Made by a program: the position numbers and the translations under genes. Shown in pieces: positions 1-14,318 of a DNA stretch of 22,019 nt. The notes beneath the pieces were generated by a model, which ran no database searches, had not been told where the DNA came from, and saw nothing but the letters and a program-made list of their open reading frames with translations. This DNA is from a virus (taxonomy: Duplodnaviria > Heunggongvirae > Uroviricota > Caudoviricetes): the IMG/VR virus record IMGVR_UViG_2585427746_000008; one strand, given 5' to 3'. Position 1 is the first letter of the stretch; every line of letters begins with the position of its first letter.

Positions 1-984
1 ATGACGGCGAAAACAGCACCGAAAGTCACGCTGTGGGAGTTCTTCCAGCAGTTAGGCAAAACCTTCATGTTACCCGTGGCATTATTGTCGTTCTGCGGCA
101 TTATGCTCGGCATTGGTAGTTCTCTTAGCAGCCATGATGTCATAACCCTGATCCCGGTCCTGGGCAACCCCGTGTTGCAGGCTATCTTTACCTGGATGAG
201 TAAGATTGGCTCGTTTGCTTTTAGTTTCCTGCCTGTCATGTTCTGTATCGCCATCCCGCTGGGCCTGGCACGCGAAAATAAAGGCGTAGCGGCATTCGCT
301 GGCTTCATCGGTTATGCGGTAATGAACCTCGCGGTAAACTTCTGGTTGACCAATAAAGGCATTCTGCCAACCACGGATGCCGCGGTTCTGAAAGCCAATA
401 ACATCCAGAGCATTCTTGGGATCCAGTCGATCGATACCGGGATCCTCGGTGCGGTGATCGCCGGTATTATCGTCTGGATGCTGCATGAGCGTTTCCATAA
501 TATCCGCCTGCCGGATGCGCTGGCATTCTTCGGCGGTACGCGCTTCGTACCAATTATCTCCTCGCTGGTGATGGGCCTTGTCGGCCTGGTGATTCCATTA
601 GTCTGGCCGATTTTCGCCATGGGTATTAGCGGCTTGGGCCATATGATAAACAGCGCGGGTGATTTCGGACCGATGCTGTTTGGTACCGGTGAACGTCTGC
701 TGTTGCCGTTTGGTCTGCATCACATTCTGGTGGCATTAATTCGCTTTACCGACGCAGGCGGCACGCAGGAAGTCTGCGGTCAAACCGTCAGCGGCGCACT
801 GACCATCTTCCAGGCGCAATTGAGTTGCCCGACCACTCACGGTTTTTCTGAAAGCGCCACGCGTTTCCTTTCGCAAGGTAAAATGCCTGCGTTTCTCGGC
901 GGTCTGTGTAACCAGGTAAATCATTTGATACCGACAAGGGTTTTAGTGAAAGGAGGTGAAATCACCTGTAAGATACTGAAATAA
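1..984 (+). CDS. malX: PTS sugar transporter EIIC domain (MalX-like), N-terminal ~302 codons only; frame runs into phage DNA after ~nt 906 and stops at 984 (disrupted gene)
   Basis: ORF starts at nt 1 with MTAKTAPKVTLWEFFQQLGKTFMLPVALLSFCGIMLGIGSS, a polytopic membrane protein typical of glucose/maltose-family EIIC. From memory this matches E. coli MalX. The last ~25 codons (CNQVNHLIPTRVLVKGGEITCKILK) are unrelated and coincide with the start of phage-end repeats. Confidence 0.6.
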   Translation: MTAKTAPKVTLWEFFQQLGKTFMLPVALLSFCGIMLGIGSSLSSHDVITLIPVLGNPVLQAIFTWMSKIGSFAFSFLPVMFCIAIPLGLARENKGVAAFAGFIGYAVMNLAVNFWLTNKGILPTTDAAVLKANNIQSILGIQSIDTGILGAVIAGIIVWMLHERFHNIRLPDALAFFGGTRFVPIISSLVMGLVGLVIPLVWPIFAMGISGLGHMINSAGDFGPMLFGTGERLLLPFGLHHILVALIRFTDAGGTQEVCGQTVSGALTIFQAQLSCPTTHGFSESATRFLSQGKMPAFLGGLCNQVNHLIPTRVLVKGGEITCKILK

Positions 985-1085
985 AACAGGTGATCGATGA
1001 TTCTGGAGGTTGTTTAGTTTTGATACTGATTAAATAAAATCCGGTATAAAATTAAGGTATCGGCAACAAATTTGATACTGCACAT
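905..1085 (+). repeat. attL-like terminal region with repeated putative transposase-binding sites
   Basis: Direct copies of TTTGATAC(C/T)G at 924-933, 1019-1028 and 1071-1080, a near copy at 971-978, and inverted imperfect copies (cggtataaa 1042-1050, ggtatcgg 1056-1063). Also a 9-bp perfect inverted repeat atcacctgt/acaggtgat at 961-969 and 985-993. Confidence 0.6.
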
Positions 1086-1946: not shown

Positions 1947-2192
1947 GTGAGTCTTATTGAAGATTGGTCTTCCGCCGATATAAAGGCAGCCTTAGAAAAA
2001 CGCGATACCAATTTGTCACGTTTATCAAGGGAAAATAATTTGCAGCCTAGGACTTTGGGTAATGCTTTGCGAGTTCCCTACCCTAAAGGTGAAAAGATAA
2101 TTGCTAGGGCTATAGGTGTAGAGCCACAGGTTATTTGGCCTACTAGATATGAACGACGTGCGCGGAGGAAATATGTGGGTTGCAATGACTGA
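1947..2192 (+). CDS. ner: Ner-like DNA-binding protein (Ner/Nlp family)
   Basis: 81-aa ORF with GTG start as first gene of the early operon. Resembles Mu Ner in size, position and motifs (LSRLSREN..., PKGEKIIA, PQVIWPTRY versus Mu PKGEQIIA, PEVIWPSRY). Confidence 0.8.
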   Translation: MSLIEDWSSADIKAALEKRDTNLSRLSRENNLQPRTLGNALRVPYPKGEKIIARAIGVEPQVIWPTRYERRARRKYVGCND

Positions 2193-4257
2193 ATTGATTT
2201 CATTCAGTGACCTACCTAGTTCTTTGGCAGGTCTGCACAAAAAAGCAAAGAGGGAAGCGTGGAAAACGCGGCTAAAACCAGGGGTAAAAGGGAAAGTTTT
2301 AGAGTGTGAAATAGGGGCTTTGCCTTTAACTGTTCAGCAGGCAGTACGCGAACGCTATGCCCTGCAACTGATGACGCAAAAAGCCGATGAATCACCGGCT
2401 CCGGTAGTGACAAAGGCCAGGCGCTCACCTGCCGTGGTTGATGCGGTGGAGGCATATCGCGGATCACCACAACTGATGCTCGAACGCCTCAATGCCCTGA
2501 CTGAAAACCAGCGCCAGGTGGCTGATGCACGAATCGCGATCGTCAGCGAAGTTCTGAAAGTCGCGCAACAACCTGGTTTCAGCTGTGCGAAGGCTATCCG
2601 GTTTATCGTTGACAACCTGGCACGTTCGCAACTGGACGAGCGCATTGTGGCAATGGTTGAGACGGCGAACGCCAAAAAGGGAAACAGCCGTGCGTTGAGT
2701 GAAATCACGCTGAAACGCTGGATTGCAGCCTTTAACAAGGCGCAGAACGCCGCTGAACGCCTGCTTTTGCTGGCACCTGGTAAGCGCCAGGAAATAAAAG
2801 CCGAAGATATTAACTGGCTGCCCGAATTTCTGGCGCAGTATCGCCAGTCAAACGGCCGACCAATGACCGAGGCTTACGAGGATTTTGTCGCTGAATGGCA
2901 GCACCGGCACGCTGATGAGCCTTATATGCTCGATATCATGCCGTCTTACGACACCATCCGCCGCGCAATGAAGAAACTGCCGGAAGTGGTGAAACAAAAA
3001 GGCCGGGTGACCGGCAGTGAATACCGCCAGCTTGAGGGATTCACGCGCCGCGACTGGTCCAGAATGCCGGTGAATTATGTCTGGATTGGTGACGGTCACG
3101 GCATGAAGCTGAAATGCAGGCACCCGGTTCACGGGCGGCCATTTGCACCGGAAGTGACCTTTGTTATCGACGGTGGCACGCGCTTTGTGGTGGGCTGGAG
3201 CCTTGACCTGGCTGAAAATGTTTTCGCCGTAGCCGGTGCCATACAGTACGGTATTCGTAATCACGGCAAACCGTTTCTGTATTACTCGGATAACGGTTCC
3301 GGGGAAACCGCCGACATCCTGGATAAGGAAGTTGTGGGGATCCTGCCGCGACTGGGGATTAATCACCCAACCGGGATTGCCGGTAACCCGCAGGGACGGG
3401 GCATTATCGAACGGCTTAACCGCACGTTACCGATGCGTATAGCCCGTAAATACCGCACCTATTTCGGGAAAGGTGCAGATCGCGAGACGTTACGCAAAAC
3501 CAACCGCGATTTACGCTCGGCATTTACCGCCCTGCAACAGGGCAAACGGCTGAACGCCCGGCAACAGTCAGCGATGCGTGATTTACCGTCCTGGTCTGAA
3601 CTGATTGATGCCATTCGTGATGGCGTTGAGTGGTACAACAACCGGCCGCACGATGAATTACCCATGAAGCCGAACGGGAAGCATTACAGCCCGGCGGAGT
3701 TCAGAAAAAAACGCCTGGCAGAAGAGGACACGGAAATTGAATGGCTGTCCGATGTTGAGCTGCGGGATATGTTCCGGCCAATGGTGGAACGCCCTGTAAG
3801 ACGCTGTGAAATACGCTGGCTGAATAATATTTACTACGCGCCCGAGCTGAGTGATGAGCATGGCCGCAAGGTGCTTATCAGCTATGACATTCATGATGCC
3901 GAACGAATTACCGTACGTCGCCCGGATGGCAGCGTGATTTGCGAGGCGGTATGGGACGGCAATAAACGCGAAGCCTTCCCGGTCAGCGCGGAATACTACA
4001 AACAGCAGCAACGCCTTAAAGGTATGCGTAAACGCGCAGAGGAAAAAATCCGTGATGCCGAGGATGAGGTTGTCAACGTGCTGGAGCACAAGCCGCAGGA
4101 GCCCTGGCTGGAAAACATATACCGCCCTGTGGGTAATACGGTGACCGTTCAGCAACCTGCCGTTGATGATGAGCCTGATGAAGAATACGAGCGTAATTTC
4201 CAGCGGGGATTGCAGTTGCTCGAAGCGAAATTAAAAGAAAATGACCCTCTGGCCTGA
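2173..4257 (+). CDS. DDE transposase (MuA-like)
   Basis: Roughly 695 aa. N-terminal winged-helix motif shared with the repressor. Catalytic-core-like motifs VWIGDGHG, YSDNGSGE and GRGIIERLNRTL are consistent with a D-D-E triad. GGAGG lies 4 nt upstream of ATG 2173; the gene overlaps the ner 3' end. Confidence 0.9.
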   Translation: MWVAMTELISFSDLPSSLAGLHKKAKREAWKTRLKPGVKGKVLECEIGALPLTVQQAVRERYALQLMTQKADESPAPVVTKARRSPAVVDAVEAYRGSPQLMLERLNALTENQRQVADARIAIVSEVLKVAQQPGFSCAKAIRFIVDNLARSQLDERIVAMVETANAKKGNSRALSEITLKRWIAAFNKAQNAAERLLLLAPGKRQEIKAEDINWLPEFLAQYRQSNGRPMTEAYEDFVAEWQHRHADEPYMLDIMPSYDTIRRAMKKLPEVVKQKGRVTGSEYRQLEGFTRRDWSRMPVNYVWIGDGHGMKLKCRHPVHGRPFAPEVTFVIDGGTRFVVGWSLDLAENVFAVAGAIQYGIRNHGKPFLYYSDNGSGETADILDKEVVGILPRLGINHPTGIAGNPQGRGIIERLNRTLPMRIARKYRTYFGKGADRETLRKTNRDLRSAFTALQQGKRLNARQQSAMRDLPSWSELIDAIRDGVEWYNNRPHDELPMKPNGKHYSPAEFRKKRLAEEDTEIEWLSDVELRDMFRPMVERPVRRCEIRWLNNIYYAPELSDEHGRKVLISYDIHDAERITVRRPDGSVICEAVWDGNKREAFPVSAEYYKQQQRLKGMRKRAEEKIRDAEDEVVNVLEHKPQEPWLENIYRPVGNTVTVQQPAVDDEPDEEYERNFQRGLQLLEAKLKENDPLA

Positions 4258-4334
4258 AATAAAAAAATAACCCGAGCGGCGACTCAGGTTATTTGATTAA
4301 ACTCGGAGAACTGTCTCAACGCGAGGTGAATAAT

Positions 4335-5267
4335 ATGACCGATATAAACGATGTAATCAAGACCATTGATGAACTTATTGATGGCGGCGTGCTGACGCAG
4401 TATGCCATCGCCAGAGAGGCGGGAATTTCCGACGGCACATTATCGGCTTTCCGCAAGGGGAAATATAAAGGCGATAACGCCGCTGTGGCTGCTTCCCTGC
4501 GCTCCTGGTATGAGAACTGGAATAAACAAAGCGCACTGCCGGAACCGCCGCAGTTTGTGGAAACTCAGACAGTCCAGGAGCTGCGCGCACTGTTTCAGGC
4601 GGTTCGCCTGATGGGCTGTATTAACGTTATTGTGGGCGTACCGGGTGTGGGTAAAACGGCCACTGCCCGTAATTACTGCCAGGAGCAACCAAACACCTGG
4701 ATGATCACCCTGTCACCCGCGCACTCCAGCGTCACGGAGTGTCTGCTGGAGCTGGCCGATGCGCTGGGGATTGATTACACCCGCGCGAACAAAGGGGCAT
4801 TATCCCGCGCCATCCGCCGTCGCCTGATGGGAACGCGTGGACTGGTGATTGTGGATGAGGCGGATCATCTTGGTATTGACGGTCTGGAGCAACTCCGGGC
4901 AATTCAGGACGCCACGGGGATCGGGATGGTGCTTATTGGTAACCCGCGCGGATTGTTTAAAGGTGGACGCCGCGCCTTTGATGATTTATCGCGCCTGTTC
5001 AGCCGTCTTGCCCGTACAAAACAACTTCGCAAGGCCAAAAAGGCGGATGTGCTGGCCATTGCCATGGCGTGGGGGATCAGTGGTGAGGCTGAGCTGGCCG
5101 TCATGCAGGCTATCGCTGAAAAGCCGGGAGCGTTACGCGTTCTGACACATACGCTTAACCAGGCGTGGCTCACCGCCAGCGGTGAAGGCGCGGCGCTGAC
5201 AGAAAAACATATTAATGCGGCCTTTAAAGAGGTTTATACCAACCCTGAATTACTCTCACAGGTGTGA
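4335..5267 (+). CDS. Transposition helper ATPase (MuB-like AAA+)
   Basis: Walker A motif GVPGVGKT and Walker B motif VIVDEADHL. Lies immediately downstream of the transposase. GAGGTGA RBS precedes ATG 4335; the ORF track start at 4293 lacks an RBS. Confidence 0.85.
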   Translation: MTDINDVIKTIDELIDGGVLTQYAIAREAGISDGTLSAFRKGKYKGDNAAVAASLRSWYENWNKQSALPEPPQFVETQTVQELRALFQAVRLMGCINVIVGVPGVGKTATARNYCQEQPNTWMITLSPAHSSVTECLLELADALGIDYTRANKGALSRAIRRRLMGTRGLVIVDEADHLGIDGLEQLRAIQDATGIGMVLIGNPRGLFKGGRRAFDDLSRLFSRLARTKQLRKAKKADVLAIAMAWGISGEAELAVMQAIAEKPGALRVLTHTLNQAWLTASGEGAALTEKHINAAFKEVYTNPELLSQV

Positions 5268-10140: not shown

Positions 10141-10426
10141 TTCGCAGTTGTTCTGGTGTTTATATATCACATCGTTTTTCGGTGCATTCGTCATTACACG
10201 ATGGCTGTGCCGGAAAGTTATCAGTATTTTTCATAAAAAATACCTGATTGGGCTGGCGGCGGCTTCTCTGATTAATGCACTTGCCAGATATCATAAGGGG
10301 GAATACTACTCAAGAATAAAAACTGTTGATGGTTTTAATATTTTTGTGATTCCTCCGGAGTATCGGGTTCAGCTCGATCGGGAAAATAAAATCTATCATA
10401 TCAGCAGGAGTGTTGATACAGCATGA
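10130..10426 (+). CDS. small membrane-anchored protein (98 aa)
   Basis: AAGGAGA RBS upstream. N-terminal hydrophobic helix LFWCLYITSFFGAFVITRWL. Low-GC sequence. Confidence 0.5.
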   Translation: MDSSSQLFWCLYITSFFGAFVITRWLCRKVISIFHKKYLIGLAAASLINALARYHKGEYYSRIKTVDGFNIFVIPPEYRVQLDRENKIYHISRSVDTA

Positions 10427-10932
10427 GAGGGAAACTGATATCCGCCATTCATGTGGCAAAGCGCGAGCTTGCCCTGGATGATGAAACCTATACATTCGTG
10501 CTGCTGGCAGCCACCGGCAAATCCAGTTGCCGGGATATGTCACCGGATGAGTTATCCCGCGTGCTGGATGTTTTCAAAAAACGCGGTTTTAAAGTGCGTC
10601 AGAAACCGGTTAACCGGGCCTTAAAACCGGGTACGGTGACCGCCAAAATTCGCGCCATCTGGAAGGTAATGCACCGGCAGGGCTTTATCGCTGATGGCGG
10701 GGAAACGGCCCTTAACCGCTGGGTGAAGTCGCAGACGGCCGCGCAGAACGGTGGCGAAGGTGTGGCTAACTGGCAGTGGCTGGAGCAACACCCCGCACTG
10801 GCCTCGGATGTGCTGGAGCGTCTCAAACGCTGGCACCGTCGCAAGATGCTGGATGTGCTGGGGATGTCAGCGCGTACAGTGATGAGTTATGAGCGCGTTT
10901 GCAGGCTGTATGAAGAATCCTCCCCTTTTTAA
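10423..10932 (+). CDS. gemA: GemA-like protein (Mu gp16 family)
   Basis: N-terminus LISAIHVAKRELALDDETY...ATGKSSCRDMSPDEL is characteristic of the Mu gp16/GemA family as I recall it. It is the last gene before the early terminator, as in Mu. Confidence 0.7.
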   Translation: MRGKLISAIHVAKRELALDDETYTFVLLAATGKSSCRDMSPDELSRVLDVFKKRGFKVRQKPVNRALKPGTVTAKIRAIWKVMHRQGFIADGGETALNRWVKSQTAAQNGGEGVANWQWLEQHPALASDVLERLKRWHRRKMLDVLGMSARTVMSYERVCRLYEESSPF

Positions 10933-10936
10933 CCCC

Positions 10937-10968
10937 AAATCCCGCCACAGCGCGGGATTTTTATTTTA
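10937..10968 (+). terminator. Rho-independent terminator ending the early operon
   Basis: 9-bp stem AAATCCCGC / GCGGGATTT (10937-10945 and 10952-10960) with a 6-nt loop, followed by TTATTTT. Confidence 0.7.
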
Positions 10969-11002: not shown

Positions 11003-11425
11003 ATGGCTGAAACACAGATGAGCATGTTTGGTGACAGCGAACAGCTGCACGCGCTGATTGACCGTCTGGATGATATTCCTGATGATGAGCTGAAAAAGAA
11101 CTGGCCCGGCACGCTGCGGGACCTGGTTGATGTGATCAGTGCTGAACTGCACCGTCAGGGGATTGAACCTGCTCAGGCGGGAATGCTTGCCCGTAAGGTT
11201 GCAGCCGCACAGGCCGGGTACATGGGCGGGCGTGGTTATTATCTCCCGGTCGGTGAATCCCTTTTCACCGAACTGCGCAATAATGAAATTTTTTCCCGCT
11301 GGAGCCAGGGCGAAAAAATTGAAACCCTGCGCCGCCACTACCAGATGTCAGAGACGCAGATTTACTCCGTTATCCGCAACCAGCGTCGCCTGCATCAGGA
11401 ACGCACGCAGCCACGGCTTTTCTGA
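11003..11425 (+). CDS. Mor/C-family transcriptional activator
   Basis: 140 aa with a C-terminal HTH (ETLRRHYQMSETQIYSVIRNQRRL) resembling Mu Mor/C, including the conserved YLP..G motif (GRGYYLPVGESL). Located after the early terminator and before the lysis genes; GGAGG RBS. Confidence 0.75.
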   Translation: MAETQMSMFGDSEQLHALIDRLDDIPDDELKKNWPGTLRDLVDVISAELHRQGIEPAQAGMLARKVAAAQAGYMGGRGYYLPVGESLFTELRNNEIFSRWSQGEKIETLRRHYQMSETQIYSVIRNQRRLHQERTQPRLF

Positions 11426-12900: not shown

Positions 12901-13192
12901 AGATTATGTTGTGCCGATCCTGTCGGCAACGGCCACGGCCGGGGGGATCTTCATGGCGCTGATGCGCAAAACCTTCGTCCCCCGCGAGGCCTTTGAAAAA
13001 CTCTCCGATCGGGTTGAGCGGGTGGAGAGCCGGATTTCCGGCCTGCCCACGCAGCAGGAGGTGAACAGACTCAATATCGAAATCACCACCCTGCGCGGTG
13101 AGCTAAAGGCCACCAACGCCACCCTGAAATCCGTCTCTCATCAGAACGAACTGCTGCTGGAGCAGGCTGTAAGGAAAAAACACAATGAGTGA
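12881..13192 (+). CDS. membrane-anchored coiled-coil protein, candidate releasin (Mu gp25-like)
   Basis: N-terminal TM helix (VVPILSATATAGGIFMAL) followed by a heptad-rich helical region. Its position after the spanins and TraR-like gene matches Mu gp25. Confidence 0.5.
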   Translation: MWVSIVKDYVVPILSATATAGGIFMALMRKTFVPREAFEKLSDRVERVESRISGLPTQQEVNRLNIEITTLRGELKATNATLKSVSHQNELLLEQAVRKKHNE

Positions 13193-13475
13193 TTTCATTA
13201 CTGAAGATCAGCGTCTTGTCATTCTGCGGTCGCTGGCGGATTACAACGGCGAACTGGGCGAATCCGTGCTTCAGGACTGCCTGGATGATTACGGCCACCG
13301 CGTGTCCCGCGACACCGTTCACACCCACATTGCCTGGCTTGCTGAGCAGGGACTGGTGCGTAAGCGCACGCTTGTTAACGGTTATTTCATCGCTGAACTG
13401 ACCGGCCGGGGTCAGGATGTGGCGGAAGGTCGTGCCACTGTTCCGGGTGTGAAGAAACCACGCGCAAGGGGGTAA
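13185..13475 (+). CDS. hypothetical protein, possible winged-helix (Mu gp26 position)
   Basis: 96-aa ORF with AAGGAAAAAA RBS; its start overlaps the upstream stop. Confidence 0.5.
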   Translation: MSDFITEDQRLVILRSLADYNGELGESVLQDCLDDYGHRVSRDTVHTHIAWLAEQGLVRKRTLVNGYFIAELTGRGQDVAEGRATVPGVKKPRARG

Positions 13476-13477
13476 CG

Positions 13478-14059
13478 ATGGATAAGCCGACGCGTGGCCG
13501 TGTACGCAAGGTGGATTTGCTCCCCGACAGCATTCGTAAGCCGCTGCTGGAAATGCTGCGTGAAAAACGCCTGACGCAGGTCCAGATCCGCGAGGAAATC
13601 AACCGTCTGATCCGTGAGGCAGGCCTGCCGGAAGAGCAGCAGCTTTCACCGGCGGCCATCAGCCGGGAAGCCTCCCGTAATGAGCTGATTGCCCGTAATC
13701 TGCGTGATTTACGCGAGCAGACAAAAGCCATGATGGCCGAACTGGGGGATAAGCCGACCGGTGAAACCACGGCACTGATTCTGGAGATGTCCCGTGCCCT
13801 GATGTACCGCCGTCTGCGTGCCGCCACCGAATCCCTGAACAGCGACAGCGATGTGGATATGCGCCTTATTAAGGACATCCTCCTGTCGGCACAGCGTGCG
13901 GAAAGTGCCGCCGAGCGCAGCATTAAGCGTGAAAAAGAAATCCGGGCCGCATTTGCTGAAGAGATGGCGAACGCCGTCACCGACGAGTTGCGCGGCGTGG
14001 ATGGCATGAGCGAGCAGATAGAATTCCGTATCAGGCAGATGCTGCTTGGTAAGGCGTAG
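13478..14059 (+). CDS. putative terminase small subunit (Mu gp27-like)
   Basis: N-terminal motif RKVDLLPDSIRKPLLEMLREKRLTQVQIREEINRL resembles Mu gp27-family proteins as recalled. Lies just upstream of the large terminase. Confidence 0.6.
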   Translation: MDKPTRGRVRKVDLLPDSIRKPLLEMLREKRLTQVQIREEINRLIREAGLPEEQQLSPAAISREASRNELIARNLRDLREQTKAMMAELGDKPTGETTALILEMSRALMYRRLRAATESLNSDSDVDMRLIKDILLSAQRAESAAERSIKREKEIRAAFAEEMANAVTDELRGVDGMSEQIEFRIRQMLLGKA

Positions 14060-14069
14060 GAGGTGAATC

Positions 14070-14318
14070 GTGGTAACAGATAACCGCTCACTGATGAGCA
14101 GTGCTCATCAGAAGGCATTCAGTCTTGCAACACAGTTACCTCCTGAAACCATAAAAGCGTGTCGTGAGTTGACTGAACTCAGCATTGCCGGGGAAATATC
14201 CCTGGAACAACTGCATTCGCTGCTGGCAGGGGCTGTCACTGATGAGTTGAGTGGCGTGGACGTGATGACTGAAGAGCTTGAGTTCCGAATCAAAAGCATT
14301 CTGACAGGTAAAGCCTGA
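14070..14318 (+). CDS. hypothetical 82-aa protein whose C-terminus duplicates the C-terminus of the upstream small-terminase-like protein
   Basis: Strong AGGAGGTGA RBS before GTG 14070. C-terminus AVTDELSGVDVMTEELEFRIKSILTGKA matches AVTDELRGVDGMSEQIEFRIRQMLLGKA of the 13478 product. Confidence 0.5.
   Translation: MVTDNRSLMSSAHQKAFSLATQLPPETIKACRELTELSIAGEISLEQLHSLLAGAVTDELSGVDVMTEELEFRIKSILTGKA

Follow-up and report, generated by a model that had tools for sequence, protein, structure and literature searches.

A perfect inverted repeat at the left end of a Mu-like prophage as a possible part of its packaging signal

The left end of an Sp18-type prophage

We analysed a stretch of viral DNA of 22,019 nucleotides (IMG/VR virus record IMGVR_UViG_2585427746_000008), referred to below as the window; it takes in the left-hand 21 kb of a Mu-like (Sp18-type) prophage that interrupts the host gene malX. 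Our subject is a perfect 9-bp inverted repeat close to the phage end, which we tentatively read as part of the packaging signal (pac) of the prophage. Mu is the textbook transposable phage, and positions counted from the phage end are given here as phage bp. More than 5,000 E. coli genomes match the window up to position 906 and annotate malX there; the phage begins at 907 (TGTAACCAGG...), and an open reading frame (ORF) at 1-984 crosses the malX-phage junction. The left end has the following features (relatives are denoted by three-digit L numbers).

1-906, + strand: 5' part of host malX (PTS, i.e. phosphotransferase system, maltose IICB), interrupted by the prophage
907-994, no strand: conserved terminal block, phage bp 1-88 (L1 and the L1-proximal spacer, ending at the right arm), from near-identical left ends
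924-933, + strand: L1 transposase-binding core TTTGATACCG, from direct-repeat family D2
946-980, + strand: four pentamers in 10-bp phasing (GTGAA 946, GTGAA 956, CTGTA 966, CTGAA 976), in register with L206 and Mu
950-959, + strand: Shine-Dalgarno-like 10-mer AAGGAGGTGA, a perfect complement of the 16S rRNA 3' end
961-969, + strand: left arm ATCACCTGT, with an inverted GTGAT pentamer at 961-965 (- strand)
970-985, + strand: loop AAGATACTGAAATAAA, 16 nt, A+T-rich, holding a degenerate GATACTG copy and the malX-frame stop TAA (982-984)
986-994, + strand: right arm ACAGGTGAT, with a direct GTGAT (990-994), the fifth copy; last conserved run before divergence
995-1012, no strand: hypervariable patch between the block and L2, with seven alleles (six in 44 left ends plus the L189 hybrid)
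1019-1028, + strand: L2 transposase-binding core TTTGATACTG, from repeat search, motif enrichment and alignment of left ends
1071-1080, + strand: L3 transposase-binding core TTTGATACTG, from the same three analyses
1212-1730, - strand: repressor (Mu DNA-binding domain, Pfam PF02316), within the swapped immunity module

The three cores share the consensus TTTGATACYG, and TTGATACYG is enriched in the window (4 found, 0.25 expected). L1 and L2 are 95 bp apart from start to start, R1 and R2 ~22 bp, and the right end, seen in the identical prophage L013 of strain STEC2018-553, has three closely spaced sites, with neither a copy of the repeat nor any GTGAW. This layout, with a long L1-L2 spacer on the left and close-set sites on the right, fits attL of Mu, i.e. 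the prophage has Mu's end architecture. An earlier account of the window made from its letters alone (the preliminary description) had placed the repeat within the terminal end-repeat array of a Mu-like prophage, and this was borne out. The terminal dinucleotide of the left end (907-908; also in L003, L004, L146 and others) is TG or TA by lineage (TGTAACC versus TATAACC), and the right end of L013 appears to be TA/TT, not the canonical CA complement.

The arms of the repeat (961-969 and 986-994, 16 nt apart) occupy phage bp 55-88, within the L1-L2 spacer. The preliminary description was right that a perfect 9-bp inverted repeat is present, and off by one in its second arm, given as 985-993 with a 15-nt loop. 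One such repeat somewhere in a 22-kb window is nothing remarkable: with loops limited to 3-20 nt, seven perfect inverted repeats of 9 bp occur in it, where Markov simulations produce 2.0 ± 1.8. A 9-bp inverted repeat arose in 51 of 20,000 shuffles of the 85-bp L1-L2 spacer and in 157 of 5,000 shuffles of the 305-bp non-coding left end. The 9-mer of the arms has a single copy elsewhere in the window, at 15490, which we take as chance, and an excess of matches with one mismatch was traced to Shine-Dalgarno-like ACAGGAGAT sites. With one other copy, and none at the operators or the right end, the 9-mer was rejected as a regulatory motif.

The loop contains GATACTGA (972-979), the same letters as part of the L2 core at 1022-1029. 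The GATACTG that the preliminary description saw in the loop is therefore there; its standing as an end-repeat copy was lost, since it varies among relatives (GATGCTG, TATACTG, AATACTG and CATACTG in their left ends, with loop positions 971 and 974 differing) whereas the cores of L1, L2 and L3 hardly change, with a single L2 variant (GATATCG). An extra transposase site in the loop was rejected on this evidence: the loop reads AAGATACTGA, lacks TTT and varies in four ways.

It had also been proposed that the hairpin is an RNA structure that insulates the phage from a truncated host transcript. The truncated malX frame does read into the phage and ends at the stop codon in the loop, but the phage inserts at random, so that 'the host transcript' is not a constant feature. 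As in a rho-independent terminator, a stem-loop is predicted on either strand: the single-strand RNA fold has -11.3 kcal/mol on the + strand (z = -3.3) and -12.8 kcal/mol on the - strand (z = -4.0), and the DNA hairpin about -7 kcal/mol. In contrast to a terminator, the 9-bp stem has four G-C pairs, the loop is 16 nt instead of 3-8 nt, and a proper U-tract is lacking in the tails past the stem (CGAUGAUU on the + strand, UUCACCUCC on the - strand). A terminator scan of 700-2200 on both strands found none, the best match over 962-993 in an Rfam covariance-model search reached 9.4 bits (E = 7.3), and in a 71-nt context the minimum-energy fold of the + strand forms without the 9-bp stem. The rho-independent terminator, and with it the insulator, was rejected on these grounds. 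On the - strand an RNA hairpin could still stabilise the leftward repressor transcript at its 3' end, or weakly terminate it, and so keep it out of host DNA; on the + strand it could block host read-through. We regard this as the least probable of the explanations weighed here. It would account for the - strand fold of lowest energy, which is this hairpin in each of the two contexts tested (z = -3 to -4) and has UUU after it, for the lack of any other terminator from the repressor stop codon to the phage end, and for an arm change in the relative L189 (T to C on the + strand) that leaves a G-U pair in the - strand RNA. It would leave unexplained the pentamer array and the conserved 30 bp upstream of the left arm, and on the + strand the sequence downstream is hypervariable.

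The Shine-Dalgarno-like 10-mer is kept in all left ends, with one G-to-A variant, and overlaps the second GTGAA pentamer; this overlap may be the whole reason for its conservation. Use of the 10-mer in translation was rejected, as no start codon lies at a usable distance and a scan for small ORFs gave none conserved across types.

Conservation of the terminal block

The left end is carried by 233 of 5,426 complete E. coli genomes (about 4%). The full 305-bp non-coding region is matched in only 13 of the 233, i.e. the window has a rare immunity type, and about 220 match phage bp 1-88 alone, at 96-99% identity, with the match stopping at the last base of the right arm. We aligned left ends, five at first and then 44, each set from different insertion sites. 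The 88-bp block is almost invariant across the 44 ends whatever their immunity type, and was found with at least six immunity or patch types. Conservation in related prophage ends had been put forward in the preliminary description as a check on the repeat, and the repeat is kept in all close relatives: the arms are unchanged in the 44 ends, and L189, a more distant member, differs both in the left arm, which reads ATCACCTGC, and in the loop.

Between immunity types, spacer bp 28-88 show 0-2 differences (4 in L189). The adjacent shared transposase gene diverges by 9-18% at its four-fold degenerate sites, a rate at which 5-11 differences would be expected. The block therefore changes 4-8 times slower than the synonymous sites of that gene, a sign that purifying selection acts along the full length of the segment or that the segment has a younger common origin. 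Within the block, none of the 18 arm sites and 7 of the 49 other sites vary (P ~0.10, our own estimate from the counts). Covariation in the stem could not be assessed from the alignment, which has one arm variant only in more than 45 ends.

These figures bear on the possibility that the repeat is a functionless accident of one lineage, produced for example by template-switch 'correction' of a quasi-palindrome and then conserved because the block is young or linked to L1, with the length of the spacer mattering over its sequence. Chance alone would give two repeats of this kind in the window, conservation of the arms does not exceed that of the sites around them, every relative below ~90% transposase identity is without the repeat, and the spacer can be aligned with the Mu or L206 type, such that a few substitutions could make the repeat. 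However, the chance of a repeat within the spacer is just 0.003, the block is far more conserved than synonymous sites, and the arms are made of the block's own over-represented pentamer. We consider an accident unlikely.

The conservation ends abruptly. The patch that follows the right arm has alleles of equal length (CGATGATTCTGG, GTCTGGATGAGC, GTATACTTCGGA, TTCAATCTGGGC, GACTGGATGAGT and GGCTAGATGTGC, for example; L189 hybridises two), and even phages with 96% identity across the 3 kb that follow can have different alleles, a divergence far above that of synonymous sites. Beyond the patch the conserved L2 and L3 cores are set in divergent sequence, and similarity to the window resumes within the transposase gene, at phage bp ~1429. 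Phage bp 89-1428 thus form an exchangeable immunity module (995-2334) that comprises L2, L3, the repressor, the operators, ner and the first ~60 transposase codons, and at least four repressor types (172, 176, 184 and 203 aa) occur between one 88-bp end and one transposase body. A module that includes the transposase N-terminus is exchanged likewise in Mu versus D108. The L1-L2 spacer of Mu and D108 (L005 and L251) contains, at bp 79-90, a perfect palindrome of 12 bp, GGCTTGCAAGCC, near the point where the two phages begin to diverge (~bp 95); this parallels the way in which the window repeat closes its conserved block. Further genes in and beyond the module are these.

1947-2192: Ner-like gene
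2149-4257, + strand: Mu-type transposase (Pfam PF09299, PF02316), 22% identical to MuA
4293-5267: MuB-like ATPase, by Pfam

The pentamer array and its candidate reader

The arms of the repeat are built on a pentamer that recurs in the block. GTGAW is enriched there (four in 61 bp, p = 0.0002), in the densest cluster of the 22-kb window, and the core of each arm is one such pentamer, the inverted GTGAT at 961-965 and the direct GTGAT at 990-994, each extended to 9 bp. The cluster and the repeat together take up phage bp 40-88 of the left end. The phased series 946/956/966/976 is in register, with an offset of 1 bp, with GGGAG/TGGAT/GGGAT/GGGAT at bp 39/49/59/69 of L206, which has the same site core; in Mu the arrangement is GGGAG 33, TGGAT 43, GGGAT 53 and GGGAT 63 (bp).

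Among relatives with transposases 54-78% identical to that of the window (prophages of E. coli, Shigella, Klebsiella, Raoultella and Pluralibacter, and viral contigs) the repeat itself is absent, even where the site core TTTGATAC is shared. These relatives, in which L1 and L2 are 71 or 104 bp apart as against 95 bp in the window, have GGGAW in its position, on one strand at offsets 0, +20 and +30 with TGGAT or AGGAA at +10, as in Mu, and a Vibrio Mu-like phage has a Mu-type GGGAW array as well. GGGAW arrays adjoin transposase-site cores of four unrelated kinds (Mu's own, TTTGATAC, TTCAAGATAA and GAGAAAT), and they are therefore not transposase sites. In L202, a second lineage whose site core is TTCAAGATAA, GGGAW is absent and GTGAT is present in three direct copies, at 0, +10 and +30. 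Phased GGGAW sites are found at Mu bp 33-67, in L008-L012, at bp 24-62 of OK490420.1 and at bp ~485-527 of PV485168.1; the pentamers are kept in E. coli Mu and as far as the Mu-like phages of Klebsiella and Vibrio, with a significant 10-bp periodicity in several (p = 0.002-0.05). A broader scan for left-end patterns gave mostly chance matches.

As the preliminary description had it, the repeat is plausibly a protein-binding site; as for its being a transposase or transpososome site, the evidence favours packaging, with a bending role for HU as a rival. In that rival the repeat would be an architectural element of the transpososome, a hinge with an A+T-rich centre (a partial cruciform or melted bubble) that attracts HU, bends the L1-L2 spacer and joins transposase subunits. 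HU binds and bends the L1-L2 spacer in Mu (PMC3145075), where the spacer of attL is given as a '74 bp spacer' (PMC3820752). The window element sits at the same place in a three-site left end, with 85 bp between the cores; its dyad (977.5) is ~2 bp off the midpoint between the L1 and L2 cores, repeat and long spacer are both confined to the left end, and Mu and D108 both keep their palindrome in the same spacer. HU, however, needs no specific sequence, whereas the window segment is constrained in sequence and specific to a lineage, such that neither its near-total conservation nor a lineage-specific pentamer in the same host would be explained. A 16-nt loop is also unfavourable for cruciform extrusion, relatives with the same core manage with spacers of 71 or 104 bp and no repeat, and a 10-bp periodicity of AA/TT or GG is significant in relatives but not in the window spacer. 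We hold this architectural role to be distinctly unlikely. Intrinsic curvature of the window spacer was rejected, since the periodicity is not significant.

The arms might instead be half-sites for another dimeric, sequence-specific protein of host or phage, for example a regulator of end usage. This would suit the perfect 9-bp dyad symmetry and a second palindrome, AGGTGA-AA-TCACCT (954-967), that overlaps the 961-994 repeat. The rest of the evidence makes it improbable: the window has just one further copy of the 9-mer, and the operators and the right end have none, a half-site spacing of 25 bp is unusual for a simple dimer, and nothing inside 961-994 matches the IHF consensus WATCAANNNNTTR with one mismatch or fewer, the sole match with one mismatch overlapping the L1 core.

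The protein that would read the pentamers is most readily sought among the packaging genes, which have the following positions.

13185-13475, + strand: small winged-helix-like protein, counterpart of Mu gp26 (weak helix-turn-helix Pfam matches), directly upstream of the small terminase
13478-14059, + strand: small terminase (TerS) of the Phage_Mu_Gp27 family (Pfam PF11985, E = 3e-33), 57% identical to Mu gp27
14318-15982, + strand: large terminase subunit, by position and length as Mu gp28 and by synteny with Mu and L013

Mu gp27 is annotated as the terminase small subunit, and Mu gp26 as a winged helix-turn-helix protein at the syntenic place; the large terminase ORF (14318-15982) gave no match in the Pfam search. 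Wherever a repeat-bearing left end and a TerS gene are on the same contig or record (at least eight cases), the TerS is of the window type, 97-100% identical. The closest relatives of L202, whose array is also of GTGAT, have small terminases of the window clade (72-74%). Near the N-terminus the window clade differs from all GGGAW phages examined, with RGRV(R/K)K versus RGRxSK and KPLL versus xxLH/N/D. Phages with an intermediate TerS (72-75%) gave no left end for comparison: their prophage contigs end ~230 bp upstream of the transposase, and no E. coli counterpart was found.

Natural chimeras separate the array from the genes next to it. L016/L206 is 97% Mu from bp 4298 on, with a small terminase 99% identical to Mu gp27, and the 4.3 kb before that point, with attL, c, ner, A and B, are of the window kind (A-B ~74% at the nucleotide level, transposase 75% at the amino acid level). 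Its spacer is nonetheless Mu-like (CCGGGAGGA..TGGAT..CGGGAT.TGATGGGAT), and other phages that combine Mu's small terminase with the TTCAAGATAA core have GGGAW too. This supports the view that the array goes with the cognate small terminase and not with the transposase or the immunity module. Mu and Sp18-type phages share the host E. coli and yet differ in their pentamers, which argues for a reader encoded by the phage, probably not a host factor. The Mu chimeras (L016/L206, i.e. IMGVR_UViG_2778261638_000005, with L204, L220 and L221) are 97% Mu from bp 4298 (kil), with a module related to that of the window in place of the Mu sequence to the left. Two end-site cores, TTTGATAC and TTCAAGATAA, are in use among them, although their transposases are 90-96% identical to each other in DNA over the segment that aligns best.

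Several observations elsewhere in the window are noted in passing. Between the genes for the two terminase subunits is an 82-aa ORF (14070-14318) that gave no match in Pfam; its final ~30 residues (…AVTDELSGVDVMTEELEFRIKSILTGKA) duplicate the C-terminal end of the small terminase (…AVTDELRGVDGMSEQIEFRIRQMLLGKA). The segment of 259 bp that holds this ORF is missing from the otherwise identical prophage L013 and includes a perfect 9-bp inverted repeat at 14091-14111. Another perfect 9-bp inverted repeat, AAATCCCGC-N6-GCGGGATTT at 10937-10960, follows the ORF 10423-10932 and precedes a Mor-like gene (11003-11425); by analogy with the terminator annotated at the corresponding place in Mu, it is likely to be a terminator. 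RefSeq annotates a 'tRNA-OTHER' in L013 at 18646-18725 (- strand), about 18888-18967 of the window, between the head-morphogenesis and virion-morphogenesis genes, and an ARAGORN scan of the whole window found no tRNA.

A possible left-end packaging signal

From comparison of the sequences we tentatively infer that a terminase binds the block and that the block is pac; its inverted geometry, beyond the pentamers alone, may matter. The inverted repeat would then be part of the left-end pac signal, a GTGAW variant of the Mu-like pentamer array, and to this reading we give a probability somewhat below one half (about 0.45). The analysis supports it in several respects: i) the position of the element at the left end only, ii) its conservation above the neutral level, iii) its independence from immunity type and from the class of transposase site, iv) its Mu register and v) its co-occurrence with one TerS clade. 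Packaging of Sp18 DNA in O157 Sakai is efficient (PMC2669165), and a working pac must therefore exist in the Sp18-type lineage.

The closest precedent is Mu itself. Groenen and van de Putte are said to have mapped Mu pac genetically in 1985, in the L1-L2 spacer at about bp 32-58; to our knowledge Mu pac is known only from deletion mapping in Mu, and we know of no defined recognition motif. Their paper (Virology 144:520) is among the references of PMC5418689. Both elements occupy the L1-L2 interval of the left end and are missing from the right end, both have pentamers phased at ~10 bp in the same register, and both belong to phages that package their DNA and have a small terminase of the Gp27 family. 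They differ in the pentamer (GGGAW in Mu, GTGAW here), in the inverted copy and the fifth copy, 14 bp past the phased series, that in the window yield the 9-bp inverted repeat and are missing in Mu, and in the conserved block, which in the window extends to bp 88.

Terminase sites built from repeats are familiar from other phages, e.g. the R sites of lambda cosB with their IHF bend, the hexamer clusters of P1 pac and the pacL and pacR boxes of SPP1, in which short repeats, some of them opposed, stand on both sides of a centre that is A+T-rich or bent, and an oligomeric small terminase reads them. The window shares with these sites several short repeats of which some are in opposite orientation. 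It differs in that the sequences and the TerS families are unrelated, and in that those sites lie on concatemers or circles and not at the edge of an integrated transposable genome.

Under the packaging reading, copies of the phage would be scattered through the host chromosome late in lytic growth, and the small terminase (13478-14059), perhaps with the winged-helix protein encoded upstream of it, would read the pentamer array, at the left end only. The large terminase would then cut host DNA a short way to the left (here inside malX), and the head would be filled rightwards. Mu and most relatives would use GGGAW in one orientation with ~10-bp phasing; the Sp18-type array would use GTGAW/CTGWA and add the inverted copy (961-965) and the fifth direct copy (990-994), and these two would form the 'hairpin'. 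A role for the small winged-helix-like protein (13185-13475) as a co-factor in the recognition of pac is possible. In the deposited genome of the Yersinia phage vB_YpM_3 (L412, MT374852.1), 108 bp (bp 1-108) precede the Mu left end; they are probably packaged host DNA, of the size expected for headful cuts at the left end.

Several findings weigh against this interpretation. The arms are not significantly more conserved than their surroundings over the 44 ends, the only arm variant in more than 45 ends is the change in L189, and the low divergence of the block could come from recent recombination rather than selection. The spacing of the arms, 25 bp from centre to centre, matches no known terminase geometry. 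As for the reader, the link between terminase clade and pentamer is essentially one evolutionary switch, and the terminase of L202 was assigned through its relatives rather than from its own contig. The Klebsiella phage Kp4866-3 has a TerS only 46% identical to that of Mu and keeps GGGAW; the type of pentamer thus does not track overall divergence of the terminase, and GGGAW may simply be ancestral.

A further proposal is doubtful, i.e. that the one-base switch from GGGAW to GTGAW, together with a few changes in the N-terminus of TerS, is a readable code of packaging specificity, and that the inverted copy re-wires the placement of the terminase. If this were true, the left-end sequence alone would predict which transposable prophages package, or hijack, one another, and it would explain why swaps of the immunity module are confined to the right of bp 88. 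If on the other hand the repeat is neutral, the analysis still corrects a tempting misreading of it as a terminator or an extra transposase site.

Sp18-type prophages occur in many Shiga-toxin strains among the 233 genomes that carry this left end, and they insert into genes and into other prophages. A defined pac with a motif specific to a terminase clade would make their packaging specificity testable, and with it cross-mobilisation between co-resident Mu-like prophages; it would likewise make testable a fixed left boundary for the exchange of immunity modules, and the true ends of such prophages would be easier to annotate.

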